Origin: Kiritimatiellia bacterium
Lineage (GTDB): Bacteria > Verrucomicrobiota > Kiritimatiellia > RFP12 > UBA1067
Direction of reading: 5' to 3'
DNA: 64,000 nucleotides
NCBI GenBank assembly: GCA_017406465.1
Contig: JAFQYM010000030.1
Coordinates: 31,684 to 95,683, forward strand
The number at the start of each line of letters is the position of its first letter. Within the stretch, counting starts at the first letter, position 1. The notes below the pieces were generated by a model that was not told where the DNA came from, ran no database searches, and saw only the letters and a list, made by a program, of their open reading frames with translations. Positions 10,557 through 63,200 of the stretch are shown piece by piece. A program made the translations under genes and the position numbers.

Positions 10557-10648
10557 GGAGAGATGGCAGAGCCTGGTTGAATGCACATGACTCGAAATCA
10601 TGCATACCCGCAAGGGTATCGGGGGTTCGAATCCCTCTCTCTCCGCCA
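10557..10648 (+). tRNA. tRNA-Ser(CGA)
   Basis: Acceptor GGAGAGA/TCTCTCC, anticodon arm CATGA-ctCGAaa-TCATG, long variable arm, GGTTCGAATCC T-loop, encoded CCA. Confidence 0.96.
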
Positions 10649-11856: not shown

Positions 11857-14800
11857 ATGAAACTCAAAAAACTCGTCGTAATTGGGGCGTTTGTTGCCCT
11901 CGCAGTCGCGCTTTGCGCCACTGCATCGTCATTGTTCTGGGTCTGCCGCAAGGTTCGCGCCTTCGAAGCCGAGCATGGAGGTAGCGTCTACGCCAACTTG
12001 AGCAAGGCGCAGATGGACGAAATCATCAAGGCCAAGATAAAGGAAGCTGCGACTAACGCGGCTCCCGCCTCCGCCTCGGCTGTCGTGCAGCAGAGCCCCG
12101 AGCCCGCCGCCGATAAGCCGAAGGGCCCGCCTCCTCCGCCAAAGCCGATGGTGAGGTTCGCCGCCCCAGGTCGCTATCTCCCGCCCGGCGGCGCGCGGGC
12201 GATTGGCGTAGAGTCCGTCAACGTGACGAACATCCACGCCGAGATTCGCCGCGTGGTGCCGGAAAATGTCGTCCAGCTTCTCGCCCGTGAGGAGCGCGAG
12301 TACAGCCGCTATCGTTGGGGTGGCTCCGCAGACAACGAGGAGACCGAGGAGCTTTCTGGCGAAATTGAGGAACACGACTTCGCCTGCGTGAACAGGCCTA
12401 ATGAAAAGGAGACAGTTGCCGTGCCAGTCAAGATGAACGACGGCGGCAGCGCCAACGGAATCTTCCTCGTCGCCGTTAGAAGCGCCGACCGTCCGCGCGC
12501 AGACGGCTGGTGGGTCGACGAACCAAAGCAGAACCCCAACCGCTACCGCCTCGTCTGCCTTTCCGACCTCGGGCTTTCCGTTCGCCTTAACGGGACCGAG
12601 TCGCCCGGCGTCTGGGTGACTTCGCTTATGAAGGGCACGCCTCTCGACGGCGCAAAGGTGACGGTATATTCCAAGGCGAATATCAAGGTGATGGAAGGCG
12701 AGACCGACGAGAACGGCTGGAGCCGCCTCGTGCGCGTCGCGAAGGGCGAGCCGTTTGCCGTCGTCGCCACAAGCGCCGATGGCGCCGACAGCACGTTCCT
12801 CGCTCTCCGCGACTCAATGGAAGTCGACGAGACGTATCCAGACGGATGCCGCCCAGAATACCTCGCGGACGACGGCGTGGAGGCGTTCCTCTGGACCGAC
12901 CGCGGCATCTACCGCCACGACGAGAAGATTATGGTTCACGCGCTTCTGAGGAACGGCCGCCGCCAAGCGCCGAGTCCAATGCCAGTTGAGCTGCGTCTCG
13001 TGAGCCCGAAAGGCGACATATACTTCCGCCTCACGATGACGACCGACGCCGAGGGCTCGCTTTTGTGCGATACATTTACCGTTCCCGCAGACCAGCCGAG
13101 CGGCGCGTGGAAGTTCCAGGCGAAGATTCCCGGCAAGGACGGCCGCATACTCGGGACGGCGGGGATAAAGGTCGAGGAGTTTGCGCCGCCGCAAATACGC
13201 GTCAAGGTCGAGGCAGACGCCTCGGCGCACCCGTCGAACTTCGCGTTCTTCGTCTCCGCGGAACACCTTTTCGGTGGTCCTGCCCACGCGCTCGCCTGCG
13301 AGGGTGCAGTCGTGTTCGAGGATTACTCTTTCGCGCCGCCACAATGGAAGGGGTGGTCTTTCGGGAACTGCGACCTCGGCCTCAAGCCGAATTTCCGGAC
13401 ACTATTGAAGACTTCGCTCGACCGCGAAGGCAAATGCGTCATGTCCGCGCCGCTCTGGGCCGATTCGGGGCTGCCGAAGGCCGCAGTACGCGCAACGGCA
13501 CAGGGAACAGTGTTCGAGGACGGCGGTCGTCCTGCGACGGCGCGCGCTTCCGCAGTTCTCCACTACTACCCATACTACATTGGCTCAACGCTTGAGTCGT
13601 GGATGCGGCTCGATAACGGGCTCGCGCCGAAGATCCGCTTTGCCTGCGTGAAGCCGGACGGCTCGCGTCACGGGGAAACCCGCACTCTCTCCGCGACATT
13701 GGAGCGCATCGATTCCGTATACTCCTATCGCCGCCAGTCGAACGGATGGGAGACGTGGGATTGCGAGCGCATTCGCAAGATCGTCGCGTCGTCCGTAAAG
13801 ATCGTCGTTCCTGCAGGCGAGGACGCGACATTCGAGATCCCCGCTGGCACCTGCGGAGACTACGCGCTGACAGTGACGGATTCCGAGACGGGCGTTTCGT
13901 TTGCAAAGACCTTCTACTTGAGCGACTGGGGCGACTCGGCGGTTCGTGCGCCGCTCTCCGACCCGACGGCGGTCACGCTCACTACCGACAAGCCGTTCTA
14001 CCGCGTAGGCGAAACGCCGCGCCTGATGGTTCGCGCACCGTTCGCCGGCTATGCACTCGTGTCGGTGCTGCGTGACAAGGACGCATACACTGACATCGTC
14101 GCACTCACAAACGCGACAAGCGAAATTGCGCTTAGATCGGTCACGCTAGAGAACGCGCCGAACCTCGATGTTTATGTGTCTGTTGTGCAGAGCGTTGAGG
14201 CTAATGCAAAGCACATGGCTGCTCGCGCCCACGGTCAGGCGACGATATCGGTGCGCCCGGTCGAGGATGAGATCGCCGTCAAGGTTGAAAAATGCGATGT
14301 TGTCGTCGGCAGCGAGAAGGGCTCGTCCGCGACCGTCACCTTCGAGGCGCGCGGCGCATCTGCCGCGCTCGTCACGATCGTGGACGAGGGGATCAACATC
14401 CTTACGGACGAGCAGGTGCCTGATCCTGTGGCGCATTTTGCCGCGCCGCGCTACGCGAGCCATCCGCTCTACGACATCTACCACCGCATGCTTCCCGTGC
14501 TTGGCGAGGACCTTCTCCGCGCGAGCGGCGTCAAGACGGGCGGCGGCGCGGGAGCGGAGATGCTCGGGCGTGTAAGCCCCGTGCCGACGCGCAGGTTCAA
14601 GCCGCTTTCGCGTTGGAGCGGCCGCGTGAAAGTCGGCGAAGACGGGAAGGGCGTGTGCGAGTTTCCGCTTGGCGAGTTCGTCGGCGAGATTCGCGCGACA
14701 GTCGTAGCGTGGAGCGCGTCTGCGTCTGGCTCTGACGCAATTCAGGCGAAGGTCACGCCGAAGATTGTCATGATGCCGGATGCGCCGCGCTTCGTCGCGC

Positions 14801-42949: not shown

Positions 42950-43049
42950 AAAAAAGTTTGTCATCGGCTGTCACTGGGTGCATACATTCACTTGGTTAAA
43001 CTTGTTGCTCGAACCGAAGCGTCATCTTCAACGCTTCGGTTTCGTGTTT
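42950..43049 (+). repeat. 100-bp direct repeat, copy 1
   Basis: Aligns without gaps to 47771-47870 with 4 mismatches (42974, 42975, 42979, 43031). Confidence 0.95.
42957..42984 (+). promoter_or_regulatory. Candidate ECF/alternative-sigma promoter, copy 1
   Basis: A-tract, TTTGTCATCG, N11, GTGCATA. Confidence 0.5.
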
Positions 43050-43050
43050 T
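42990..43050 (+). ncRNA. Candidate ~60-nt sRNA, copy 1
   Basis: Follows the promoter-like motif. Unstructured 5' part, then hairpin AACCGAAGCG-N10-CGCTTCGGTT and a T-rich tail. Confidence 0.4.
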
Positions 43051-43055
43051 TATGA

Positions 43056-43094: not shown

Positions 43095-46000
43095 CTAAAG
43101 GTCTACAGGGAAAGCTTCGCATTCGGTGACGGAATTCTGTTCGTCCACCTTTATCCCAACAGAAAACATCCTATGCAAACCGTCAGATCCAACCTTTGGC
43201 GGAGCGAATGTCATTACCTGATATCCCTTGCCAGTCTTTACGAGTTGCGAAGTTCCGCTGACTTTCGTTGCGCCGTTGGCGAAGGAAACGACGCCATCTT
43301 TCTTAAAGGTCAGGACAAGACCGTCTTCCTGTTCCACTTTGAAATCCCTCTTGAATACCGGCATCGATGTCTTGGTATCCGCACGCTTCCAGAGATTCTG
43401 CCACGCAGACCACTCGTCGCACGACACTTCGCCTATCGCCGGAAGGTCGGTGTCGACAATGCTCGATGCGACCGTGATCACATTGGTTATCATGGCTTTG
43501 CCGTTTTTGCCGATGACGGTCGCGAGGAAAATGCCGTCCTCGGTGCTGTCATAGGAGCTCGCCGTGAGCGCCCATGTAAGGTTGTCGACAAGCATCTTGC
43601 CGCTTATCTTGCCTGCCGGCGACACCGTCAGCGCCTGGATGGCGCCGACTGCGTTGGCATCCGCGTCCCATGCCGTGCCGTAAAAGTTTCCAACCGCCCA
43701 TGCGGGAAGGGAATTGACTTGGAAGTCAAACGAGAATGTCTCTGATGACTTGCCTGCCGTCGTCACCGTGAATACTACCTTTGACGGCGTTACGGCGCCG
43801 GTCTTGGCATCGACCTTGGATGCCGTCGTCGGAACGCCCGTAACCGAATATTCCCCAGTCGTCTTGTTCTGGACGAGTTTTAGCCCGGCTGGAAGCCCCG
43901 CGACCTTCACCGTTGTCTTTGAAAGCCCGTCCGGCACAATCGGCCAGTCAAGGGCGACGCCGCAATAGCGGTTGACGGGCGCGTTTGCCGTGCCGCTCGC
44001 CGCGCCGTTCAGATTTGAGCTGTCCACTTCGAGGCCAATCGCGTCTTTGTCTTCCTGCGCAGTAACGAACTGTGCCGTGATGAATATGTCGTTCATGCCG
44101 TCCATTCTCAGCTTGATTGTCGCGGCGAAGGGATCCGGTATTTTGGCGTCTCCGCCGGTGATGACCCAGCGGCTGAAGACAAAGCCCTTGTCCGCCTTTG
44201 CCGTCAGCGAAACGTCCTTGCCTGCCGCGACCTGCCCGTACTTTGGGGTCATAGAAATCTTGCCTGTGGCGCCAGAGTCCTGCGTCAGCGATTCGATGGT
44301 GGCGACAATGCCGGGATCGCGGTAGACGTTGTCGCCGTAGTTCTCTCCATGGTGTGCGACGAGATTGACGTCCTTGAACACGGCAGGATATCCTTTTTTC
44401 GCGTCAGGGGGAATCGCAACTACTACGTGCAGTCCTGTTGGCTCTGCGAGCGCATTTGCCGAGAACGACGCTTTGCGCGACTTCGCGCCGTCGGGGATGT
44501 CGGCCGAACCTTTTACGGCGCCTTTCTCGTCAAGAGCAAAGGCAATCTCGCAGGAGGCATTGCCGTAGCCTGCGGAGAAGGAATAGGCGCCCGCGTATGT
44601 GGCGACAAGACCTGCGGCAAATGCATCGGATTTGTCCGACCAGATGATGCGGTAGAGCGTCGTGTCGTCGCTGCCGAACGAACCGGCGGCCGCGCCAGTT
44701 GCGGAGTCGACGGACAGGTATTCCGCCTTGAAGTCCGTGAGCGCCAGCGCCAGATCGCGAGTTATTTTGCCGGCGGTCGCCGACAGCCCGATCAGCAGGT
44801 TCGTTGTCCCCGTCGTTTCGCTTTCAATGGTGAAGGAATCGGCTTTGAACGTCCAGTTCGTGCCGTCCAGTGCGATTTTGCCCGATATCTTGCCTGCCGC
44901 CGTGATGCTCATCGTTGCCACGCCGCGCGAGGCGACGGATCCCTCGAAGTTTCCGACGGCCCATGAGGGAAGGGGGTCGACCGTTATCCTGACAACATAG
45001 GTCTTAGTCGACTTGCCTGCCGTCGTCACCGTGATCTTGACCTCCGACGGAGTGATGTGTCCCGTCTTTGCGTCGACCTTAGACGCAGCGGACGGAGCGC
45101 CGTAGATCGTATTTGCTGGGACAAGCACTTCCTTGGTCTTTGAATCGACAACGTCCTTTGCCGCAAACTTGAGCCCCGAGGGAAGCCCCGCCACTTTCAC
45201 CGTTGTCGCCGAGAGCGCCGTCGCGGCGACTGGCCACTGGAGCGAGATGCCGCACATTACATTTGTCAAGAGCGTGTCGGAGGGGTTTTCGAAGGAATGG
45301 CCGTCCATTTCAAGCGCAATCGCCTTTGCGTCATCGGCGAGCGTCGCAAAACGCGCTTCGAGCGCCAGGTCTTCTGCCGGCATCTCGAGTGAAAGCGCCG
45401 CATTTCGGGATTCATCCACCAGTTCCCCGTCCAGATAATAGCCGCAGAACGCGAAACCGGCGTTAGCCGTTGCCTTCAGCGCGACTTTCTTGCCGTATGG
45501 ATAGGAACCGGCGCCCGTGACCTTGCCCATTTGCGGAGCAGAAGCTCCGTCGCAGTCGACGACGTCGGCTGACAATTTCGGGAACAGCACGTTGAATCCG
45601 GCGGTAACGACCTTCTTTTTGCCGTCCTTTCTCGCGGTGAATGTTACGGTCGTGCGCCCCTCTTTCGCGGCAATGCCGCTCAGTCGCCTATTTGGGGCGT
45701 CGTATGCAATTCCCTGCGGCAACCCCGAAACGGTCAACGTCCAGCCATTCTCCGCGACGGTCGCAATAATGTCCGACAGGTCGGGCGCGAGCCCCGCCCA
45801 GAGTGTGTAGGGGCTGCCGAGTCCGAATCCAATAAAGGCATCGCGTTCAAACGTGGCTTCTGATATGATTGAGCAGTTAAGATCCTCCTTGAAGGCACGG
45901 GCCTTCACCGTTACGCTCGAAGAGATCTCGAACGGTCCGCAATACTCTTCGCTTTCTTCCGTCGGATCCGTTCCGTCCGTCGTATACTTTATGACGGCAC

Positions 46001-47696
46001 CGTCCGTGGCGCACGAAATCGTCACAAGTGTGTTTGGATAGAAGATTCCCCCGTTGGGCGAAATCATCGGCGGCGCGGCAGACTTGACGTTTATGACCAT
46101 GTCGCATCCCCAGGAGTTTCCACAGGCCACGCTTTTCCCCGCGTCATTGATCCAGCACATGCCAACGTCAAGAGTCACACTCGAGCTAGCGCTCCTTGTT
46201 GTCGTTGCCTTGGCCGACACACTGTAACCAGTCGCTTTCACGGTGTACGACTTGTCCGCGTCGACTACAAACGCATATATTCCCGATTCGCTTGTCGCCG
46301 TGCTGGCGATCGGCTCGTCGGAATCGGCAGAGAAGATCGCGACATCCACGTTGGGAAGGGGAGTGCCCTCTTCATCGGTAACGCGCCCGGACACTATTTC
46401 CCCGTTTGTCTCGGGGAATATATTGTATATGACCGATTCCACCATCGTAGACTCGTATTGGCCGTCGGCCGTCGTGATGTACGGCAAGGCATACCATACG
46501 TTGTCTTCACCTGACCACCCGAGGTTGACATGCGTATAGAGGGTCCCGTCTGAATAGCCGTAGCCGTCGGCGAAGGCGATGTGCCCGACAAATCCAAGGA
46601 TCACTGGCAGTCCTGCGTCAAGATTCGAGCAGACGATGCGATTGCGGAAACTCTCGTCCTTTAGATCCTTCTCGCATGCGCATACTATGGCGTTTTTGTA
46701 TCCAAAGTCTTCTATCAGCACCGATGCCGAGCCTGCTCCGCCTGAAGAACTGGCCTCCTCGTCCCACCACATCCTCATTGCGACACCGCAGTCGTATGTC
46801 AGTTTCCCGATGGCGGCCAGCTGGGTCTCGGTCGCCCCTCCTGCGTACCAAGGCACATATTCGTATGCCTCGGGAATAAGTGGCATGCTGTCATAGTCGT
46901 ATTCTCCGCCAAACATCGTCATGAACGCGTTTTTAGTCCGAACCTTGCAGCCCTTGGTCTTTGCCTTGACGGACTTTGGGTACTCGTGATAACGCATGAT
47001 TTGCGCAAGAGTCGTCGCAACGCATCCGCACGGATAGTTGCTTGGGGTGTAGTAGTTGTAGCAATTGGTGCCCATGTTGATGTATATGGAGTTGTTCTCT
47101 TGCCCCCACATTGACTTTACAAACGGCTCGACACGGACGTCGGAAACAGATTCGGCCGGGTCGGTGGCCGATTTCAGCATGTTCCTTGATCCCTTGGCCG
47201 AAGATGACGTTCTTGCGCCTTCCGAAAGGAGCCGATCCCACTGCCTTTGGGTGGCCGTGCGCTGCTGTTCCTCGGCCGTCGAAGTCAGGAGCCGGACCTT
47301 GCGAGCGGGAGTCGCGGGTTCGTTTGCGCGGGTGCGCATTGCGATATCGGCCTTGAGGATGTCCAAGAGCGGGCTGTTGCAGTCGCCCTTGCGCAGATTG
47401 CCTGTCGGCGAGAATGCAATGACCGGCTGGACAAGATCGTCTGCGCCCATGACGACGAAACCGCCGCCGTCAAGCGAGACGACGTGCATTTTCGCGTTGT
47501 CCGCCTCTAAGGTCTCGCCGTCCGCGGCGGATCTGCCGCGGAGACCATCCATGGAGTAGCCGAGGTTTATCCACGCCTGCGCTGCCGTCTTCGCGGACTC
47601 AAGCGAGACTTCTGCGGCATTTGAGATGGCCGGCGGGAAAAACAGTGCTGCGACTGCAATGGCCGAGGATGTCCAAGAAATGGATATCTTCTTCAT
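43095..47696 (-). CDS. Large secreted C10 (streptopain-like) peptidase with Spi/I69 prodomain, CHB_HEX_C-like, putative Ig and B-repeat domains
   Basis: GGFVVMGADD..QPVIAFS (I69-like), PCGCVATTLAQIMRY, GHIAFADGY, HVNLGWSG, YTTDGTDPT, repeated SGLP.G, G.VTGAGSY.YGKKV.LKATANAGF.F. Confidence 0.85.
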   Translation of the reverse strand: MKKISISWTSSAIAVAALFFPPAISNAAEVSLESAKTAAQAWINLGYSMDGLRGRSAADGETLEADNAKMHVVSLDGGGFVVMGADDLVQPVIAFSPTGNLRKGDCNSPLLDILKADIAMRTRANEPATPARKVRLLTSTAEEQQRTATQRQWDRLLSEGARTSSSAKGSRNMLKSATDPAESVSDVRVEPFVKSMWGQENNSIYINMGTNCYNYYTPSNYPCGCVATTLAQIMRYHEYPKSVKAKTKGCKVRTKNAFMTMFGGEYDYDSMPLIPEAYEYVPWYAGGATETQLAAIGKLTYDCGVAMRMWWDEEASSSGGAGSASVLIEDFGYKNAIVCACEKDLKDESFRNRIVCSNLDAGLPVILGFVGHIAFADGYGYSDGTLYTHVNLGWSGEDNVWYALPYITTADGQYESTMVESVIYNIFPETNGEIVSGRVTDEEGTPLPNVDVAIFSADSDEPIASTATSESGIYAFVVDADKSYTVKATGYSVSAKATTTRSASSSVTLDVGMCWINDAGKSVACGNSWGCDMVINVKSAAPPMISPNGGIFYPNTLVTISCATDGAVIKYTTDGTDPTEESEEYCGPFEISSSVTVKARAFKEDLNCSIISEATFERDAFIGFGLGSPYTLWAGLAPDLSDIIATVAENGWTLTVSGLPQGIAYDAPNRRLSGIAAKEGRTTVTFTARKDGKKKVVTAGFNVLFPKLSADVVDCDGASAPQMGKVTGAGSYPYGKKVALKATANAGFAFCGYYLDGELVDESRNAALSLEMPAEDLALEARFATLADDAKAIALEMDGHSFENPSDTLLTNVMCGISLQWPVAATALSATTVKVAGLPSGLKFAAKDVVDSKTKEVLVPANTIYGAPSAASKVDAKTGHITPSEVKITVTTAGKSTKTYVVRITVDPLPSWAVGNFEGSVASRGVATMSITAAGKISGKIALDGTNWTFKADSFTIESETTGTTNLLIGLSATAGKITRDLALALTDFKAEYLSVDSATGAAAGSFGSDDTTLYRIIWSDKSDAFAAGLVATYAGAYSFSAGYGNASCEIAFALDEKGAVKGSADIPDGAKSRKASFSANALAEPTGLHVVVAIPPDAKKGYPAVFKDVNLVAHHGENYGDNVYRDPGIVATIESLTQDSGATGKISMTPKYGQVAAGKDVSLTAKADKGFVFSRWVITGGDAKIPDPFAATIKLRMDGMNDIFITAQFVTAQEDKDAIGLEVDSSNLNGAASGTANAPVNRYCGVALDWPIVPDGLSKTTVKVAGLPAGLKLVQNKTTGEYSVTGVPTTASKVDAKTGAVTPSKVVFTVTTAGKSSETFSFDFQVNSLPAWAVGNFYGTAWDADANAVGAIQALTVSPAGKISGKMLVDNLTWALTASSYDSTEDGIFLATVIGKNGKAMITNVITVASSIVDTDLPAIGEVSCDEWSAWQNLWKRADTKTSMPVFKRDFKVEQEDGLVLTFKKDGVVSFANGATKVSGTSQLVKTGKGYQVMTFAPPKVGSDGLHRMFSVGIKVDEQNSVTECEAFPVDL

Positions 47697-47702
47697 GCGC
47701 GC

Positions 47703-47711
47703 ATTATATCA
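47703..47711 (-). promoter_or_regulatory. Extended -10 for the C10 gene (leaderless)
   Basis: TGATATAAT on the minus strand, 6 nt before the ATG. Confidence 0.65.
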
Positions 47712-47770
47712 AATTTTCCGCGTTTTGCCACTAGGGATCCTTGTGTAAAATAAGGATACGTAAAAAATCA

Positions 47771-47870
47771 AAAAAAGTTTGTCATCGGCTGTCATCGGGC
47801 GCATACATTCACTTGGTTAAACTTGTTGCTCGAACCGAAGCGTCATCTTCAGCGCTTCGGTTTCGTGTTT
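47771..47870 (+). repeat. 100-bp direct repeat, copy 2
   Basis: Offset 4821 bp from copy 1; 96 of 100 positions identical. Confidence 0.95.
47778..47805 (+). promoter_or_regulatory. Candidate ECF/alternative-sigma promoter, copy 2
   Basis: A-tract, TTTGTCATCG, N11, GCGCATA. Confidence 0.5.
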
Positions 47871-47871
47871 C
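47811..47871 (+). ncRNA. Candidate ~60-nt sRNA, copy 2
   Basis: Identical to copy 1 except one change at the loop edge (47852). Confidence 0.4.
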
Positions 47872-47930
47872 TAGGGTATGTCGCCTTTTGCGATTTTAGC
47901 CACAAAGAGCAGGAGAAACAGAAGGAGAGT

Positions 47931-48048
47931 CAGTAGTTGGAGTCCAGAGTTGGAGTTGGGGAGTGGAGTTGGCGGCGGAGCGAAGGCCTGGGCGAGGGGA
48001 TGCGGCGTGTTCGCCGAGGGCCCCTGAGGAGGAGCCTTCGGACGTCGC
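47931..48048 (+). repeat. GAGTTG-type tandem repeats followed by a nested REP-like palindrome
   Basis: agttgg/gagttg units at 47935-47972; CGAAGGC (47981) pairs with GCCTTCG (48034); GGCGA (47991) pairs with TCGCC (48011). Confidence 0.5.
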
Positions 48049-48071
48049 TAGACAAAAAAATTAAAAAATTT

Positions 48072-48099
48072 TTTGTCATCGCCAGCGTCGGCGTGCATA
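48072..48099 (+). promoter_or_regulatory. Candidate ECF/alternative-sigma promoter, copy 3 (outside the direct repeat)
   Basis: A-tract, TTTGTCATCG, N11 (a different spacer sequence), GTGCATA. Confidence 0.5.
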
Positions 48100-48186
48100 T
48101 TGCTTATTAGCAGACCCAATAAAATCAAGGGTTTTGCGCGTTTTTGCGGGGTAATTTTACCCACGAAATTTTTTTTGTATACCCCC

Positions 48187-48216
48187 TTGCGCACAGCACA
48201 CAAGATATGCTATAAT
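48187..48216 (+). promoter_or_regulatory. Sigma70 promoter of the surface-protein operon
   Basis: TTGCGC, 18-nt spacer, TATAAT preceded by TGC. Confidence 0.7.
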
Positions 48217-48222
48217 GTCCGC

Positions 48223-48441
48223 GTTCTCGAACAACAAGGAGGATTCGGACGATGTGTCCGGGCCTTGGTTAACAGACCGGGGCACAACGAAAGTTGACTC
48301 TGAAGTTGCGAGAGGACAACAAGTTAACCACCTGAAGTGGACTTGAGTGAAGGCGGTCGGGTGATCGCAAGAGCTCTGGAAAGCGGAAGGTACCGGAGAA
48401 GGGTCCAACAAGCCCGACTCCAAAAAAAGGAAAAAAACAAA
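48223..48441 (+). ncRNA. Structured ~220-nt 5' leader (candidate cis-regulatory RNA)
   Basis: Hairpins with GNRA loops (CAAC-GAAA-GTTG, C-GAGA-G, TC-GCAA-GA, CT-GGAA-AG); long-range GTCGGG/CCCGAC; three CAACAAG motifs. Confidence 0.5.
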
Positions 48442-49203
48442 ATGAAGAAGCTCATGATTGCTTGCGCTGTTGCGGCTACGACCGTCGGCGCTTTCGCGGG
48501 TGGCTGCGGTGACGACGATCCCGTCGTTGTTCAGGATCCTGTCAACCAGGTCTATCGTCTCTCCTTCACGGGCAAGACGACTGACGGCGTTCCGGGCAAG
48601 GATATTGTCACGCCCGTCTTCTGCGGCGATGACGACGTTCAGGACGGCTGCGTTGTTCGCGTCCCGGCGAACCTCAAGATCGAGGGCTGGGTTGTTCTCT
48701 GCGACATCACCTGCGGCACGATCCTCGACGTGTTCAACGCTCCGAAGAGCCAGGCCTACTGGACCACGAAGCCCTACAAGGCTGACATTCCGGATGGCGC
48801 TGCTACGTTCGATCTCATCAACGTGATCGGCAAGAAGGGCAAGGATGCTGAGGCTGCTGGTAAGTTCACTGGTACCGTTACGTACGCTGCGGACTATACG
48901 TGGTCGCTTGGCGACGGCCTTGTTTTCGCGGGCCTTGGAAAGACCGCGGTCAAGAACGGCAGCTGGGCGTACTTCCCGTCCTTCTCGGGCAACTTCGCTG
49001 GCTCGCCTGTCGCGTCCTGGTACATCAAGGGCAACGTCTGCGAGCAGACGCATGTCTGGGAGCCCTGCACGATGGCCGTCAACTGCGACGAGACCCCGAA
49101 CACGGTTGCGTTCGGCAAGTGGGCGATGAAGTATGATGCCGCGGCCACGAAGAAGGTTGCGACGACGAATCCTAGCAAGCCGTCTTACGCGACGATCCAC
49201 TAA
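48442..49203 (+). CDS. Secreted Cys-rich hypothetical protein, probably highly expressed
   Basis: Signal peptide MKKLMIACAVAATTVGAFA; 8 Cys in the mature part; many GCT/GTT/GGT codons, unlike neighbours; SD AAGGA. Confidence 0.85.
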   Translation: MKKLMIACAVAATTVGAFAGGCGDDDPVVVQDPVNQVYRLSFTGKTTDGVPGKDIVTPVFCGDDDVQDGCVVRVPANLKIEGWVVLCDITCGTILDVFNAPKSQAYWTTKPYKADIPDGAATFDLINVIGKKGKDAEAAGKFTGTVTYAADYTWSLGDGLVFAGLGKTAVKNGSWAYFPSFSGNFAGSPVASWYIKGNVCEQTHVWEPCTMAVNCDETPNTVAFGKWAMKYDAAATKKVATTNPSKPSYATIH

Positions 49204-50440: not shown

Positions 50441-50483
50441 CTTTCAAGAAACGGAACACATGCAGAGAAGGAAGGAGAACAAC

Positions 50484-53400
50484 ATGAAAATCAAGGGACA
50501 ACTTGTACTATCCGCCCTCGCCGCAGCCGCGACGTTGCTGGCGGTCGCCGATTCGCGAGTCGAGTCGTCGTCCGACGCGCAGCTTTTCGAATTCTTCACG
50601 GCCGACCGCGCGCCAGTCGGTTCGGAAATCCAATTGGGCGTCTGGAACTCCGACATCGACGCCTGCATCGAACTTGCCAAGGAGACGGGCATCCCGATGA
50701 TCGGCGTCTGGAGCCGCGAGGGTTGCGCGCACTGCAAGATCCTCGAGCACGCGATCATGTCCGACGTGTTCCGCGAGTGGATTAAGAAGAGCGGGCTCAT
50801 CCTCGGCTTTTCGACCTCTCTCGACTCGGCGACCTTGAGCGGAGCGGATCAGGCGACGCGCGCCAAGCACTATCCGGGCGTCGTCTTCGACGAGGGCGGC
50901 GGACGTCAGCAGGCGGCGAATCCTGCGTCTGGCACGCCGACGGGCTATACGGGCGACGGACGCTACTGGAAGTGGTGCAAGGGGCCGGAAAACCTCTCGA
51001 ACTACCCGGAAGTCCGCTTCTTCTGGTACGAGGACGGAAAGAAGAAAGTCGACTTCGCCGTTCTCGGCGACAAGGTCGACGGCCAGCAGGGAATCTACAT
51101 GGGTTCGTACGACAAGGCCGGCCAGAACTGCATCAACTACATCACGAACAAGACGGGTTTCAAGCCCTATCTCGATAATCCGAAGTCGCTGTCGTCCTAT
51201 ATGGGCGGCACGTTTGAGGACGGCTACACGGACGGCAACCGCCTCGAGGCAGAAGAGGGCACTGGCGAGATTTCGTTCGACATGGTGCGCGGCGAAGCCG
51301 CCGCGGCCGTCGCGACGAACAACACCGTGAAGGTAGTCGGTCCCGACAAGCAGGTTGCCGAGACGGTCGTCGTCGAGTGGGAGGAGGGCGAGGACCAGAA
51401 GACCGTGACGGTCGACATGTCGAAGGTGAATTTCTCGAAGAACGGCGACAAGGCGCTTCTCATCGCTGTCGACGCCGATGGCAACGAGCAGGCGACGAAC
51501 ACCGTCACCTACGTTACGGGTTCTGGCGAGAGTTCGGGCAATCCGCTTTGGATTGGCGAGCGCAAGGCGACAACGGCGGATGGCGACATCCCTGTTCTCC
51601 AGTTCGGCGAATGGACGATGGACCTCGACGTCGCGAAGGCCAAGGTTGCGGACGCCGACGGCGACGCCTTTACGCTCGTCTCCGTCCAGGGTGCGCTCTG
51701 GTGCCCGGACTGCGCCAACACCGAGCGCAACTTCACGGACGTGGAGGATGGATCCGGAAATAATAGGTTCGCCGCCTGGGCGGCTGCAAATCAGGTTGCG
51801 CTTGTCGCAATCGACGTGCCCTCGTTCGCCACGAACAACATCGACAACATCTCGCGTCCGACGCTTCTTTCGCGCAAGGCGATTTCCACGACGCTGGCGC
51901 GCGCGAGGGAGTATCCGGCGTCTGGCGCAGAAGCCTCGCTTACGAACGCGATGGTTCGGAGCGGACTTGGGTATCTCACGCGCAAAGGCGTTTCGGATGA
52001 AGTTGCGGCGGACTATCTTGAACGCAATCGGCAGCTCGTAACGACTGACTTCTCCGAGGGTGGTTTTCATAGTGTGGCGGACAGTTCGCCGTTCCGCACC
52101 GGCGTTCCGATCTTCGTGGTCCTCGACAAGGAAGGAATCGTCAAGGCGCGCCTGACGCGCTTCGCGAGCGTGAGCCCGATGTCCGACCTTGACTGGGACA
52201 GCGCCATCAAGCGCTTCGACGAGCTGCTGGCGATTGCGCGGGACGGCAGCGCGCATGCCGACGGCGGCGTTCTCGAGAACGACTTCCCGTCGGCTGACCT
52301 CGAGGGCTTCACGGCGAACGGTGGAAGGGTTTCCGGGGAGATTTCGCACTGCGACTTCAGGGATGTCTACAAGCTGCAGAACTTCGGCGGCAACGCCGTG
52401 CTGCAGGTCGACGCCGTGGGCGAGTCCGACGCGGAGGTCTCGCTGGCCTTCGTGACGCTCGATGCCGCGGGCAGGAAGACGACGGTCACGAACGCGGTCG
52501 GCCGGCTCTCGGACGGCGTTTCGCTGCGGAACATGTTCGCGAGCGCGGGCGAGTATTACGTCGAGATCTCTGGCGCGAGCTACGATGCAGCGGACTTTGC
52601 CGTTGCGAATCCGACCGCTCTCGCCTTCCATACCTACACTCTCTCCGGTGCGGTCGTCCTCGTTCCTGGCGAGGTGCGCTCCACGGCGTCCGCTCCCGAA
52701 GGGCAGACGACCGTCACGATGGAGCTCGTAGAGGGGACACGCTACCGCATCGAGGGACTTGCGGACGATCCTGGAGACTCGCTCGAGAAGTCCGGCGAAG
52801 ACTTCTATGTCGCGAAGACCACTGGCAGCGCCCAGCTTTCCGTCGCGACGGCGGGCGGCGAGGTCGTGTACCAGATTTGGAATCCTGGCTCCGTCGGCTT
52901 TGTTGCGGCCGCCAAGAAGGTGAAGGAGAGCGTCGGCGACGTCGAGGTGGCGATTGCGCGCACGGAGGGGACGTCCGGCGCCGTGACGGTGAAGGTCGCG
53001 CTTGATGAGGACGCGACGACGCTGTACGACAGCGATGGGAAGGCGCGCTTTGCGTTCGCGGAGACCGAGATCACATGGGCGGAGGGCGCGAACTTCACGA
53101 CGAACTTGACGATTTCCGTTTACGACGACACCCGGTTCGACGGAAACGGCGACGTGGCGCTCAAGCTCGCGCTCGTCGCGGACGAGAACGGCGACACGAC
53201 GCTCGGGCTGACGAACTACGTGCTGACGGTGACGGAGGACGACAAGCAGTCCGCCGGCAAGGCCGCGTTCACGGGGGCCGAACCGTTCTTCTCGAAGAAG
53301 GCCACGGTGTACGCCCGCGAGAGCGAGGGCGCGACGGTTTACGCCGAGCGCATCGAGGCCTCCGACGGCTTCGTGACGGTGAAGGTGAACGCGACGAACG

Positions 53401-55136
53401 GCGCGAAGACCGAGATTGGCGGCGTCGAGACGAACGTTGTCGTCTGGGCGAACCACAAGTCCGAGTTCCAGGCGGTCAAGGTGACGGGAATCGCCGCCGG
53501 AAAGTCCGCGAAGCTGACGCTCGTCAACCCGACCGACGGGCTCAAAGTCCTCTCGGCCTCCAACGCGGTGACGGTCGTCGCGGTGGCGGACGATGCGCCG
53601 GCGTTTGACAGCCTCGAGGAGGGTGCGACGCTCTATCGCTATGCAGAATTCGCCGCCTCCTATCCCGTCGTTGGCGCGGCCGAGGGTGCGAAGCTGACGT
53701 TCACGAAGCTCTCGGGGACGCTTCCCGCGGGGCTTAAGGTTGCTGCGGACGGCCAGGCGATGTCCGTTTCGGGCATCCCGTCGGCGAAGCCGGGAACCTA
53801 TGTGGCGGTCTACCAGGTTTCCCAGAAGGTCGGCACGAAGACCACGCCCGGTCTCACGATCGAGCTTGAGTACGAGATTGTCGACCCGACGGACGCATCT
53901 GCGGGCGGGACGGCCTACAACGAGGCGGTTGCGTCCGTGAACTCGCGTACGATCAAGGACATCGCCATGATTGCGCTAAACAAGGACATCGACGCGGCGG
54001 ACACGAACCGCCTGGCCGGACTCCTCCAGGTGACGATTCCGAAGACCGGCAAGCTCAGCGCGAAGCTGGCCTGTTCGGACGGGACTGTCGCCTTCTCTGC
54101 GAAGGGCTGGAGCGAATTCAACGAAGTCTCCCGCTCGCTCGTCGCCGACCTGACGTCGAACAAGGCCGGCTACTCCATGACGCTCGTCGCGGAGAATGAC
54201 GGCCCCGTCACCGTCTCCGTGACGACTCCCACGGGCGTCCAGCTATCCGGCATCACGAAGGGGAAAGTCTGGAGCAAGACGAATCCTGCGAGCGACTGGA
54301 TGGGCTACTACACAATCCAGCTAATCAACAATTCCGTGTCCGAAAGCTCCGAAGGTGTCGCGCCGCGCGGTAACGGCTACCTGACGCTCAAGATGAACAC
54401 GGCCGCGGCGGTGAATTCCGGTAAGGTGACGTGGGCGGGAATGCTTCCGAACGGCACGGCCGTTTCCGGTTCCGTCGTCCTCAACGCGGACGACGAGTGC
54501 GGGGCGCAGGTCTTCGTCTACAAGCGCTCCTCCACGGACGAGATTTCGAGCATCCTCGAGATCCCCGACTGCGAGTCGGTTGCGGGCGATCTCGACACGG
54601 GTGCCTTCTGGAAGCATACCGAGAAGTCCTTTGCGTACGAGGTCGGCTTCAACGCTTACGGTGCGCTGTACGTCGCGACGACCAACCTTGCCGAGGCCTG
54701 CGAAATCGGGTACGAGACGACGACGCCGACGCTGTACTTCGACATCGAAGGGCTCTGCGGCGCGCTTGCCGGCGGGACGCCGTCCGCGGTCGACGGCGTG
54801 AAGGTTTCCGTCGGCGAGAAGACTGTCACGGTTGAGAAGGGCAACGCGGCGGGCGCGACAATCTCGCTCAACCGCTCGACGGGCGTCGCGACTGGGTCGT
54901 TCAAGATTCCGTATACGGACGCTAAGGGTGCGGCGAAGACGATGACGGCGAACTTCAAGGGCGTCGTGGTGATCGGATGGGGTCCGGGCTGCGGCTGCGG
55001 CGACGATGATCCTAGCAGACCTGTGGCGCTTCCGTTCGTGAATGGTGCATTCTTCGTCTCCGACAAGGTTGGCGTGGCCGGCGGCACCAAGACGGCGACG
55101 GTCAAGCGCGGCGGAGCCATCTTCATTGACAAGTAA
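50484..55136 (+). CDS. Giant secreted protein: two thioredoxin-like CxxC domains, Calx-beta, putative Ig, conserved C-terminal module
   Basis: SD AAGGAG before ATG 50484; signal peptide; WSREGCAHC and ALWCPDC; Calx-beta-like VGF......V.E.....V.I.R..G..G.V.V; SGTLPAGL. Confidence 0.8.
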   Translation: MKIKGQLVLSALAAAATLLAVADSRVESSSDAQLFEFFTADRAPVGSEIQLGVWNSDIDACIELAKETGIPMIGVWSREGCAHCKILEHAIMSDVFREWIKKSGLILGFSTSLDSATLSGADQATRAKHYPGVVFDEGGGRQQAANPASGTPTGYTGDGRYWKWCKGPENLSNYPEVRFFWYEDGKKKVDFAVLGDKVDGQQGIYMGSYDKAGQNCINYITNKTGFKPYLDNPKSLSSYMGGTFEDGYTDGNRLEAEEGTGEISFDMVRGEAAAAVATNNTVKVVGPDKQVAETVVVEWEEGEDQKTVTVDMSKVNFSKNGDKALLIAVDADGNEQATNTVTYVTGSGESSGNPLWIGERKATTADGDIPVLQFGEWTMDLDVAKAKVADADGDAFTLVSVQGALWCPDCANTERNFTDVEDGSGNNRFAAWAAANQVALVAIDVPSFATNNIDNISRPTLLSRKAISTTLARAREYPASGAEASLTNAMVRSGLGYLTRKGVSDEVAADYLERNRQLVTTDFSEGGFHSVADSSPFRTGVPIFVVLDKEGIVKARLTRFASVSPMSDLDWDSAIKRFDELLAIARDGSAHADGGVLENDFPSADLEGFTANGGRVSGEISHCDFRDVYKLQNFGGNAVLQVDAVGESDAEVSLAFVTLDAAGRKTTVTNAVGRLSDGVSLRNMFASAGEYYVEISGASYDAADFAVANPTALAFHTYTLSGAVVLVPGEVRSTASAPEGQTTVTMELVEGTRYRIEGLADDPGDSLEKSGEDFYVAKTTGSAQLSVATAGGEVVYQIWNPGSVGFVAAAKKVKESVGDVEVAIARTEGTSGAVTVKVALDEDATTLYDSDGKARFAFAETEITWAEGANFTTNLTISVYDDTRFDGNGDVALKLALVADENGDTTLGLTNYVLTVTEDDKQSAGKAAFTGAEPFFSKKATVYARESEGATVYAERIEASDGFVTVKVNATNGAKTEIGGVETNVVVWANHKSEFQAVKVTGIAAGKSAKLTLVNPTDGLKVLSASNAVTVVAVADDAPAFDSLEEGATLYRYAEFAASYPVVGAAEGAKLTFTKLSGTLPAGLKVAADGQAMSVSGIPSAKPGTYVAVYQVSQKVGTKTTPGLTIELEYEIVDPTDASAGGTAYNEAVASVNSRTIKDIAMIALNKDIDAADTNRLAGLLQVTIPKTGKLSAKLACSDGTVAFSAKGWSEFNEVSRSLVADLTSNKAGYSMTLVAENDGPVTVSVTTPTGVQLSGITKGKVWSKTNPASDWMGYYTIQLINNSVSESSEGVAPRGNGYLTLKMNTAAAVNSGKVTWAGMLPNGTAVSGSVVLNADDECGAQVFVYKRSSTDEISSILEIPDCESVAGDLDTGAFWKHTEKSFAYEVGFNAYGALYVATTNLAEACEIGYETTTPTLYFDIEGLCGALAGGTPSAVDGVKVSVGEKTVTVEKGNAAGATISLNRSTGVATGSFKIPYTDAKGAAKTMTANFKGVVVIGWGPGCGCGDDDPSRPVALPFVNGAFFVSDKVGVAGGTKTATVKRGGAIFIDK

Positions 55137-60273: not shown

Positions 60274-63200
60274 ATGAATCGAATCCGACTCGTCATAATG
60301 GCCTTTGCCGCGCTTGTCGCGGCTTCTGCGACTGCCGTGACAGTCGCGGTGGACGACTCCTGTGTCGGCATGGGATCGGTTTCCTGGAAGCAGACGGCGG
60401 TTGATGGCGGCACTGCTACGTTGACGCTTGCGGCCGAAGCCGCCGACGGATGTGCGTTCTCCGGCTGGACGGTGGGCGGCAAGGATCCTGAATGGGATTT
60501 CGACTTGCGGAATCCTTCGGTGTCCAACGTGGTCGTCCCGACCAATGCCTCAGTGACGGCGATGTTCGTCGCCGCATGGGAGGACACTCTCTACTTCGAC
60601 TTTGCAGACGACCTTTCGGACCTTGAATGCGGGAAGGCCGTAGACGTGCAGCTTTTCGTAGATTCGGCGTCGTATCCGACACTGAAGTTTTCTGGGCTTC
60701 CGGCGGGGCTTTACTATGATGCGCGGACATTGTCGATACGCGGCACGCCGACGACGCCGTGTTCGAAAACGCTTGTCGTCACCGGCAGCAACGGGTCTGG
60801 GTACAAGTTTTCGCAGACATTTGACACGTCTGTTTCCGACATCTCCGGCGAAAGACTCGTTGGGCAGGATGTCGAACTCTCCTTGGGCGAGTACTATCAT
60901 GCTTCCTTTGAAGAAGTCTTTACATGCTATGCCGAGCGTGTCTCGACGAAGCTAACTGGTTTTCCCCCTGGCCTCGAGTGGAGGGATTCTTGGGATCTCC
61001 TGTTTGGGACCCCGTCAGTCTCCGGCACCTTTGTCCTGCAGGCAACGGTAAAGTTTCCCGACGGAACGTCCGAGACGGCGACAGCGAGAATGGTGGTTGT
61101 GGCTCCCAGCCCTTCCGACTACGACGTGGATTTGTCGGGCATTGAGGACCTTGCCGTCGGTGACAGCCTGATCTCTGGCGAGTGCGAAATCGGCAGATAC
61201 GAAGACGGCATCGGCATCGTTTCCGTGAAAGGGTTGCCGAGGGGACTTTCCATCGAGACGTGGACTGACGACTCGGCGAAGGTCTATGGCATTGTGGGGC
61301 TTGTCCGCGAGCCGGGCAGGTTTTCCATCCACGTCGTGGTCAAGGCCATGGATGGCGACGATGTCAAGACGATCGATACAGAATCCGTGGTTTTTGTCTC
61401 CGATTCGCCGGGGCGCTATCTCAAGGTTTCCGTCGACGCCGATTCGCCGGATGGGAGCGGATCGGTTTCCGGGGGAGGCGTAGTCTCTGCGGCATCTGGC
61501 GCTACTATCAAGGCGACTGCGGCGAAGGGGAATGTCTTTGCGGGATGGTTTGACGCCGACGGTGAGATTGCCGAGATGGACGACGGTGTTGACTATCGTT
61601 CTCCGTCTGTGAGTTTCGGGCCCGATGCCGAATTCGAGTTCATGGACCTAAAAGGGCGTTTCGTGCCGCAGGGCGAGGACGATACGGTCGAGTTTGAAGG
61701 ACTTTCCGACGAGACGTTCTCGTTCGCCGCCGACGACAGTCTTGCCGAGAGCTTTACAGTCAGTTCACTGTCGCTTCCTGTCTTGAGCGCGACGGGGCTT
61801 CCGACGGGCGTGTCGATTGTGCCAGGGGAAGATGGCGAATACAGACTGGTCTACGACGGCGAGACGATTGCCAGGCGTCCGAGCCCTGGTCGCTACGCCG
61901 TGACGATTACGGCCGTCAACCAGTCGAAAGCGAAGGCCACAGCAACGTTTTTGCTTGTCGTCGAGAATGTCTACAGCGACAGGATCGCCGTAGAAGACGA
62001 CTACGGAGAGTTTGTTCCCGACGAGGCAATTGAGCCTATCGACCTGTCCGGGGCCGTCGATTTCGCTTCCGGCGAGACGCTCTCCGTCTCGGGACTTCCG
62101 CGTGGCCTCGTCTGGAACGCTTCGAAGAATGCAAAGACTGGAGCTGCTGCGCATACGATTACGGGAATTCCGACGCAGCCCGGCTACTACACGCTGACAT
62201 TCACGGCCAAGGTTGTATCTTCTGTGACGACAAACGGGCAGGGAAGGGTGGTGTCGACTTTTGAGACGGCAACTGCGACGGCCTTCCTGACGGTCCTGCC
62301 GTATCCGGAGCTTTCCATCGAAGTCTACGACGATGCCGCGGCCGCTGGATGCAAAGTTTCCGGCGGCGGACACTACAAGGTCGGCACGAAGGCGACACTC
62401 AAGGCGACTGCGGCGAAGGGCTGGGTCTTCGCCGGGTGGGACGGGGTTGGAGAGACGGTGCCGTTCGCGTCCCTTGCGCCGACCCTGTCCATCGAGACTG
62501 GACAGGACGACCTTTATGTCGGGGCTTTGTTCGTGCAGGTCGAGGACGATTCTCTCGAATTGCTTGAACCATACGATACGGAGAACGGCTTTGCCGCGGA
62601 GCTCGAACTTGGAGTCGACGTCGAAGAGACCGAATACGCCTATCTTGTCGCCGATCTCGTGGATACGGTGTCGCTGCCGGCTGTTTCGGTTTCCGGACTT
62701 CCCGCGGGCGTCAAGTTCAATGCGAAGACCTTTGCTCTTTTCGGCAAGCCGACGAAGTCCGGCGTCTACTACGCAACAGTCACCGCCAAGAACGCAGGCG
62801 GCTACTCGTTTGTCCGCGTGTTGAGAATTGCCGTTCTCGACGCCGACGGGGAATTGCCGCAGGAGGCGGGTCTCCAGAATGACGCCGGTATCGACTTCTC
62901 TCCGCTCGACACCTTGACCACAGGTGTGCTTTGTCAAGAGGGTGATGTCGTTCTCGAGGTTGGGGCACGCCCTGAAGTAGGAACGGCGGTTAAGAAGGTG
63001 TCGGTCTCGGGTGTTCCTTCTGGGCTAAAGGCGGCTACAGTCGTGGTAGAGGGCCTTGGGAGCATAGAACTTACAGGCACTCCGTCCAAGCCGGGGCGCT
63101 TGACGATGGTTGTCACGGTCACCTATGAGGACGGCAAGACTGCAAAATCGCAATACGCATTCAATGTCGAGGACGGAGGGTCTTACTATCTTTCCGTGCT

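Follow-up and report, generated by a model that had tools for sequence, protein, structure and literature searches.

The 64,000-nucleotide (nt) stretch of DNA analysed here (hereafter the window) comes from a Kiritimatiellia bacterium (assembly GCA_017406465.1, contig JAFQYM010000030.1, positions 31,684 to 95,683) and holds, at 48223-48441 on its forward strand, a segment that directly precedes the gene of an exported, Cys-rich protein. We found that this segment belongs to a conserved RNA family outside Rfam, with a fold backed by compensatory base changes. It carries two sites, an invariant box and a CAACAAG motif in the loop of hairpin P9, that are complementary to the invariant 5' end of a candidate small RNA (sRNA), here called sRNA1, which is linked upstream at nearly every locus with this type of leader. 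The first-pass annotation of the window had proposed a structured RNA leader at this place; the link between the box and sRNA1 is new beyond it and is the more informative result of the analysis. We read the segment as the untranslated 5' leader of an mRNA, either monocistronic or with this gene as its first cistron, that encodes an exported surface protein predicted to be very highly expressed, and we propose that the leader stabilises this mRNA and doubles as a docking platform for the sRNA. To this explanation, taken as a whole, we give a probability of about 0.6.

A conserved leader family with a covarying fold

Homologous leaders were collected by BLAST against 60 relatives, by a pattern scan of 185,579 species genomes and by a scan of Joint Genome Institute (JGI) metagenomes. 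The 62 loci obtained include 34 distinct full-length leaders of the window's kind (type A), from rumen and gut Kiritimatiellia genomes and metagenomes. Nine other species of the genus carry a leader of ~300 nt (type B; loci L007-L012, L014, L017 and L021, from genomes G008, G023, G022, G018, G019, G028, G034, G031 and G017) that has in common with type A the promoter and the first ~75 nt, i.e. hairpins P2, P3 and P4. The 3' domain of type B is unrelated to that of type A and equally conserved (GCUGAAUGGCAU..GUGCCGACCGUGUUCACGCGGGU.CAACAAAGUG..). A scan of the whole window with Rfam 15 at gathering scores returned a tRNA at 10557, elsewhere in the window, as its sole match. Over 47600-48700 at E <= 10 we obtained noise only (E >= 0.4, the best score being 20.8 bits for a threshold of 60), and nine related loci gave no Rfam match at E <= 0.1. 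Type B leaders are likewise without a match in Rfam.

The window leader folds with a minimum free energy of -76.8 kcal/mol, compared to -60.5 +/- 4.6 kcal/mol for 200 dinucleotide shuffles (z = -3.55), none of which was as good. The fold model was derived from the RNAalifold consensus and from our own pair counts over the 34 type A sequences, in which 95.5% of the cells of the revised fold are paired; RNAalifold independently recovers most of its helices, all but P5 and P7a. Changes on both sides are seen at 17 pairs; column shuffles give 7.1 +/- 1.5 such pairs, and none of 500 reaches 17, a control that overstates the significance as the sequences are related. The safer control, in which the 3' partners are slid by 1-3 columns, gives a covariation score of 0.04-0.055, clearly below the 0.191 of the revised fold. 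The proposal of a novel structured leader is thus borne out, as it matches no Rfam family and its homologs covary.

The helices are listed in Table 1. In the 5' domain, P1 starts 10 nt past the -10 box, 1-3 nt from the predicted 5' end, and is extended in the window by CAAC/GUUG (48232-35 with 48305-08). The three hairpins P2, P3 and P4 within this domain are adopted alone by 20 of 25 homologs. The P3 stem is preserved by matched insertions and substitutions in five leaders (L101, L111, G028, G017 and G012); its UUGGUUAAC is like the sRNA1 seed and is complementary to 48323-30, and its GGUUAAC is missing from G012 and from the type B leaders. P4, the CAAC-GAAA-GTTG stem of the first-pass annotation, is both conserved and covarying, with CGAU-GAAAA-AUCG as a variant in G019 and G031. 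In the 3' domain, the best-supported element of the fold is P5'/P6 (48346..48375). Between these two helices lies a purine internal loop, GAAG/AAGA, in which A48350 and A48372 are invariant and G48371 nearly so, and which, judging by its letters, would resemble a tandem G.A motif. Further downstream, the CAACAAG exposed by the P9 loop is predicted to be unpaired with a probability of ~1.0. An alternative helix, CUCUGG/CCGGAG (48374-79 with 48393-98), and a local hairpin, CUG/CGG, were both paired in just 77-79% of cells, and neither was adopted.

All the strings from which the first-pass annotation built its stems are present at their positions: TGTGTCCGG (48253-61), CCGGGGCACA (48277-86), CAACGAAAGTTG (48285-96), GTTGCGAG...CAAC (48305-20), AAGT/CCAC-CTGAA-GTGG/ACTT (48321-44), GTCGGG (48356-61), CCCGAC (48413-18) and CAACAAG at 48232, 48317 and 48406. 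As stems they fared unequally. The stem AAGU/CCAC...GUGG/ACUU, part of our P5, is plausible as modelled, but it is invariant, shows no covariation and has its outer pairs broken in 6 of the 34 sequences. The stem GTTG..CAAC (48305-20) is not conserved, 72% of cells being paired, without compensation. A domain closed by GTCGGG/CCCGAC was dropped: 20 and 12 of the 34 sequences cannot form its two outermost pairs, whose bases covary instead with local partners in P6. GGG/CCC alone can still form, either as P9 or as a pseudoknot between the P6 loop and CCC (48413-15); this pseudoknot is 99% paired and, being invariant, cannot be told from P9. The multiple GNRA tetraloops reduce to GAAA (48289-92), which alone is conserved; GCAA falls in a helix strand and an internal loop, and the loop of the covarying hairpin is GGGU. 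Conservation extends to two of the three CAACAAG motifs, the second and the third; apart from the window, only a few relatives have the first.

The pairings described as mutually exclusive do exist in the window, CCTTGGTTAAC (48263-73) being complementary to both GTTAACCA (48323-30) and CAAGG (48235-39). The stem TGTGTCCGG/CCGGGGCACA is the fold of 4 of the 25 homologs, as opposed to the 20 with three hairpins, and covariation favours neither. For the long-range pairing UGGUUAAC/GUUAACCA both sides are invariant; its 5' partner is missing in G012 and G021, so this pairing is not essential. The conformational switch suggested from these exclusive pairings was not demonstrated, with no covariation for the alternative helix and no expression platform.

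An invariant box complementary to a linked candidate sRNA

The longest invariant block of the 34-sequence alignment is the box CAACAAGUUAACCA, which lies between the 5' and 3' domains, partly under P5, and is complementary to the P3 loop (UGGUUAAC, 48266-73). Upstream of the leader, the window contains two 103-nt direct repeats that we interpret as two genes of sRNA1, a candidate ~65-nt sRNA with its own putative promoter, built differently from that of the leader. Each repeat consists, in order, of an A-tract, the -35 box TTGTCA, a 17-nt spacer, the -10 box CATACA, ~7 nt, UGGUUAAACUUGUUG and a 10-bp GC hairpin with a U-rich tail. Among 37 distinct copies from relatives, a variable spacer separates conserved -35 and -10 boxes, a promoter-like pattern; the seed is invariant and the hairpin is conserved.

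The sRNA1 seed, GGUUAA(A)CUUGUUGC (= GGUUAA(A)CUUGUUG), is the reverse complement of the box, with one bulged A in the window. The match is a perfect 14-mer where sRNA1 has the one-A-shorter seed GGUUAACUUGUUG (e.g. in G013), and by our own arithmetic a 60-nt RNA would match a 220-nt leader over a perfect 14-mer by chance with a probability of ~4e-5. This same box is the site of the best duplex in each of the 21 distinct cognate pairs (mean -19.7 kcal/mol; mean z = -2.9 relative to shuffled leaders). For the window pair, the duplex has -20.0 kcal/mol, and 1 of 200 shuffles is as good. The CAACAAG of the P9 loop provides a second site complementary to the sRNA1 5' end, predicted to be fully accessible.

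Box and sRNA1 also occur together. Of the type A contigs that extend several hundred nt upstream, most carry one or two sRNA1 copies, on the same strand and 220-1130 nt upstream of the box. Over the 117 species genomes of the genus, sRNA1 is present in 10 of 10 genomes with the box and in 6 of 107 without it, two of these six looking spurious (Fisher p ~9e-11, uncorrected for phylogeny). By comparison, no linked sRNA was found at the nine type B loci, where 1.5 kb of upstream DNA shows no complementarity of 11 nt or more. Note that four genomes without a detectable type A box (G011, G019, G093 and G107) have sRNA1-like genes, in three copies in G011 and with the seed variant GGUUAAUUUGUUG in G019; either these metagenome-assembled genomes are incomplete or the sRNA has other targets.

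Promoter, predicted transcript and downstream gene

The position 48223 is compatible with a predicted transcription start 7 nt past the -10 box TATAAT (48211-16) of a strong promoter whose layout is kept across homologous loci. In the window's source assembly (102 contigs, 83% complete; hereafter the own genome), the leader is present as a single copy. CCCCCTTGCG followed by TATAAT, TACAAT or TATACT occurs there at 19 sites, nearly all of them upstream of rRNA leaders, tRNA genes, rpmJ, rpmE and acpP. The gene is therefore driven by a promoter of the housekeeping, high-output type used for rRNA, tRNA and ribosomal proteins. This backs the very abundant mRNA envisaged in the first-pass annotation as far as the promoter goes, although the abundance itself is a prediction. 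The 19 sites define a housekeeping promoter consensus of the organism: an A/T tract, CCCCC, TTGCGC, ~18 nt and TGnTA(T/C)A(A/C)T (e.g. in the 10833 region of the window, upstream of rpmJ).

A coding reading of the leader was rejected, since many 1-nt indels across the 34 homologs break any frame; every open reading frame of this segment either begins before the predicted transcription start or is on the opposite strand. No hairpin followed by a U-run, as in a terminator or attenuator, was found inside the leader and the ribosome site is unpaired, thus the leader does not gate translation by occlusion. In some 20 JGI contigs of 1.0-1.9 kb (loci L064-L112), the first base lies 7-19 nt past the predicted transcription start (2-14 nt ahead of P2) and the last one 7-90 nt beyond the stop codon of a single gene, in some cases right behind a terminator hairpin. 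These contigs may have been assembled from the RNA of a monocistronic mRNA or, alternatively, from DNA with breaks at conserved and variable boundaries.

The gene behind the leader encodes a 253-aa protein without any Pfam match. It has 79 homologs, the few named ones being 'hypothetical protein', one of them from a Kiritimatiellia metagenome-assembled genome. Its AlphaFold2 model is all-beta (predicted local distance difference test score of 85), and a fold search of the PDB gave no significant match (best E 0.016, TM <= 0.26). The proteins encoded behind type A and type B leaders are Cys-rich and exported, have 223-610 residues and a common signal peptide, MKKLMIAAAVAA, and make up a single fast-evolving family. 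This family is Kiritimatiellia-specific, and the 253-aa protein looks like the dominant surface protein of the cell. A GCG(C)GDDDP motif is found near its mature N-terminus (48505-48525) and also near the C-terminus of a 1558-aa protein (~55000-55040; gene 50460-55136).

A proposed role as stabilising leader and docking platform

We propose that the 5'-terminal structured domain would protect an abundant mRNA from 5'-end-dependent decay, as in ompA and S-layer leaders; by this analogy, a role of the leader as an mRNA stability element is plausible. sRNA1, transcribed from its own promoter, would nucleate on an exposed CAACAAG and then zip along the box, thereby opening P5 and displacing the contact that the box makes in cis with the loop of P3. 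The outcome may be altered decay or ribosome loading, so that stability or translation of the mRNA would be tuned, most likely downward; this direction is a guess, modelled on the envelope-stress sRNAs, which silence abundant mRNAs of envelope proteins.

The closest parallels are found among such mRNAs. MicA pairs with the E. coli ompA leader, as do MicL with lpp and RybB with omp mRNAs, for which references are given in PMC3997798, PMC1807950 and PMC3551931. In common with these systems, the window would have a long structured 5' untranslated region on the mRNA of an abundant envelope protein, a stem-loop at the extreme predicted 5' end (the covarying P1) and an unpaired ribosome site, together with a candidate trans-acting sRNA that has its seed at the 5' end and a terminator hairpin and that, by prediction, pairs with the leader. 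It differs from ompA/MicA in showing no sequence or Rfam relationship, in a docking box placed away from the ribosome-binding site (RBS), in sRNA genes that are linked to the target, directly upstream on the same strand and often in tandem, and in its setting, another, uncultured phylum with no Hfq detected in the own genome. We know of no S-layer gene leader that carries a conserved sRNA docking box. Work referenced in PMC3997798 attributes a stabilising effect on ompA mRNA to 5'-terminal stem-loops, and S-layer mRNAs are stabilised 6-10 fold (PMC8056022). The S-layer leaders (Lactobacillus slpA, Bacillus anthracis sap/eag; PMC8056022) are similar to that of the window in combining a strong promoter, a long leader, a stable mRNA, a dominant secreted surface protein and a hairpin past the stop codon, features that we predict here from the DNA; in contrast, the window protein is unrelated to known S-layer proteins, with neither a Pfam match nor a fold match in the PDB.

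Several observations weigh against docking. Ranked by duplex energy with the seed (-16.6 kcal/mol), the box is 96th of 9,705 pre-filtered sites of the own genome, ~95 of which pair with the seed at least as well; energy does not single it out, and the argument is built on linkage and conservation instead. As neither seed nor box varies, there is no compensatory change between them, and no two-sided covariation was found in the sRNA1 hairpin over 37 copies. The main box is ~110 nt upstream of the ATG, too far for a simple occlusion of the RBS, and Hfq (PF17209) was not found in the 83% complete own genome, where the controls were positive. Moreover, the start of transcription, the sRNA1 transcript and the abundance of the mRNA are all predicted. 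As for the fold, P2, P3, P5 and P9 are almost invariant, hence they fit it but are unproven, and the relatedness of the sequences inflates the shuffle control. Much of this would suit a leader acting as a stability or translation element alone, the complementarity being fortuitous or the upstream element being something other than an expressed sRNA, such as a terminator plus a protein-binding DNA site. Yet box and seed are the most invariant blocks of their respective elements, they are co-located on the same strand at nearly every locus and co-occur in every genome with the box, the duplex forms at the same site in all pairs while type B controls show nothing comparable, and conserved boxes around a varying spacer give sRNA1 the appearance of having a promoter. 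We consider this simpler explanation rather unlikely.

It is also conceivable, but improbable in our view, that the conservation stems mainly from selection on the DNA. The palindrome of P2, CGGAY-N5-GUCCG, would then form, with the leader downstream of it, the crossover and homology region of a promoter swap (inversion or gene conversion) that chooses which surface-protein gene is expressed, with the RNA fold secondary. The relative G016 points this way, with two inverted leader copies 27.5 kb apart (C2:33225-33491, + strand, and 60775-60976, - strand), one of them without promoter, and with a tyrosine-recombinase gene in between (C2:44089-44526, - strand). The two copies become homologous precisely from the 5' edge of P2 on, where 50 nt of perfect identity follow 40 unrelated nt (15/40 identical). 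Likewise, the same leader precedes genes of 229-610 codons and assemblies frequently break within the leader. This recalls the single-promoter inversion systems of surface proteins (Mycoplasma vpma/vsp/vsa, Bacteroides invertible promoters), with which G016 has in common a promoter-bearing and a promoter-less copy in inverted orientation, a recombinase gene between them and a junction at a palindrome. However, the window's genome has one leader copy and its 102-kb contig (C58) no recombinase (PF00589) match, the compensatory changes in P1, P4, P5', P6 and P8 indicate selection on RNA, which recombination sites do not need, and variation between strains ahead of a conserved block would account for the assembly breaks just as well. 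A promoter swap may operate in the family but is not supported at the window locus; it would complement an RNA function rather than replace it. A combination, in which one ~220-nt sequence bears three layers of control (P2 as a DNA crossover moving a single housekeeping-strength promoter between surface-protein genes, as G016 would suggest, a stabilising RNA fold, and a docking box for a linked Hfq-independent sRNA silencing the expressed cassette), is similarly improbable. More doubtful still is a riboswitch-like sensor, i.e. a ligand-, temperature- or protein-driven switch between TGTGTCCGG/CCGGGGCACA and P2+P3, or between box-P3 pairing and P5. The exclusive pairings are thermodynamically close in some homologs, L092, G018, G019 and G031 folding into the alternative, and the conserved purine-rich unpaired blocks (GGAAAGCGGAAGG, GAAG/AAGA) could be binding sites. 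Against this, no terminator lies in the leader and the RBS is open in the predicted ensemble, leaving no expression platform; the alternative helix is favoured by no covariation, the genes behind the leader code for structural surface proteins rather than for metabolism or transport, and homologous genes carry a different 3' domain (type B) behind the same 5' domain. An aptamer would be expected among conserved covarying helices, which are present, but nothing marks a ligand pocket and the 3' domain is swapped in orthologous loci. Finally, a CsrA-type protein might bind the leader and the Shine-Dalgarno region at their GGA motifs, of which there are several (among them GGAAAG, in a possible loop, and the Shine-Dalgarno AAGGA). 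CsrA (PF02599) was not found in the own genome (83% complete), whereas the E. coli, B. subtilis and Thermotoga controls matched, and we regard such binding as very improbable. The docking of sRNA1 on a stabilising leader remains our preferred explanation.

Kiritimatiellia are abundant and almost uncultured in rumen and gut communities, and a full-text literature search for small RNA in this group returned incidental mentions only and no description of a regulatory RNA. Three elements come out of this locus: a leader family that acts in cis and a candidate sRNA family with a clear, testable target, both new, and a second multi-copy small element. They all precede the gene of what looks like the dominant surface protein of the cell. 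It offers a concrete entry to post-transcriptional control in a phylum where, in one 83%-complete genome, Hfq and CsrA are undetected. The interest of the linked sRNA-box pair lies in giving access to RNA-based regulation in an uncultured phylum and in lending itself to direct tests, and the strong promoter-leader cassette could serve for expression in such organisms.

Features of the locus and neighbouring elements

Table 1. Positions of the leader, its helices and the surrounding elements in the window
Feature	Position	Strand	Description
sRNA1 gene copy 1	42950..43052	+	Candidate; 95% identical to copy 2; seed 42993-43007
sRNA1 gene copy 2	47771..47873	+	Candidate; -35 at 47780-85; predicted RNA ~47809-47873
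sRNA1 copy 2 seed	47814-28	+	UGGUUAAACUUGUUG, then hairpin and U-rich tail
sRNA2 candidate	48065..48180	+	Promoter type as sRNA1 (48073-48101); core GACCCAAUAAAAUCAAGGGU; terminator hairpin GGGGUAAUUUUACCC and U8
Strong promoter	48167..48216	+	T-run/UP-like tract, ACCCCC and -35 TTGCGC (48187-92), extended -10 TGcTATAAT (48208-16)
5' leader (type A)	48223..48441	+	~219 nt; predicted transcription start to the base preceding the ATG at 48442
5' domain	48226..48312	+	Closed by P1 and P1b; contains P2, P3 and P4
P1	48226-29 with 48309-12	+	2 pairs changed on both sides; 91% paired
P1b	48239-41 with 48298-300	+	One pair A-U to G-C in 3 sequences
P2	48244..48262 (48244-50 with 48256-62)	+	UUCGGAC-N5-GUCCGGG; near-invariant palindrome; 99.6% paired
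P3	48262..48283 (48262-70 with 48275-83)	+	Almost invariant; loop and upper stem hold UUGGUUAAC
P4	48285..48296	+	CAAC-GAAA-GUUG; 3 of 4 pairs changed on both sides
Invariant box	48317..48330	+	CAACAAGUUAACCA (RNA form in the seed comparison CAACAAGUUAACC); proposed sRNA1 docking site
P5	48320..48345	+	CAAGU/ACUUG and CCAC/GUGG, loop CUGAA; predicted by folding; partly covers the box
P5'	48346-48 with 48373-75	+	1 of 3 pairs changed on both sides (13 sequences at that pair); 95% paired
P6	48353-58 with 48363-68	+	Loop GGGU (48359-62); 5 of 6 pairs changed on both sides; 99% paired
P8	48395-98 with 48418-21	+	GGAG/CUCC; encloses P9; 3 pairs changed on both sides (GGAC/GUCC, GGGC/GCCC)
P9	48401-04 with 48412-15	+	GGGU/GCCC; invariant or nearly so; loop shows the third CAACAAG (48406-12)
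Ribosome-binding region	48422..48444	+	Open, A-rich; GGA 48429-31, ATG 48442; unpaired probability 0.7-1.0 throughout
Gene of 253-aa Cys-rich exported protein	48442..49203	+	Signal peptide MKKLMIACAVAA...
20-bp hairpin past stop codon	49229..49270	+	Inverted repeat; 3' end, stabiliser or terminator

The second small element, the sRNA2 candidate, has a strong terminator that abuts the leader promoter. A promoter scan recognises its own promoter at 48073, which is of the same type as that of sRNA1. In most type A loci sRNA2 is found at a fixed distance (~-203 from the box), and its terminator stem covaries. The sRNA2 core GCCAAUAAAAUCAAGGGU occurs nine times in the own genome (contigs C26, C28, C54, C55 and C101, and the window), the copies elsewhere being often flanked by GGGGACAGACCCC/GGGGTCTGTCCCC inverted repeats. 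One copy on C54 lies upstream of a paralogous gene whose product begins with MKKLMIA. On the same contig, a tyrosine-recombinase gene (13689-14243, - strand) adjoins two paralogous surface-protein genes of this MKKLMIA... kind (15578, + strand, and 25050, - strand).

In the window, the two sRNA1 copies are separated by the gene of a 1533-aa C10 peptidase (43095-47696, - strand). In the metagenome contig L074, the end of an AAA+ gene, two sRNA1 copies ~270 nt apart, sRNA2 and the leader follow each other contiguously, without a peptidase gene. In view of this arrangement, the C10-peptidase gene of the window looks like a 4.8-kb insertion, or a recombination, between tandem sRNA1 copies.

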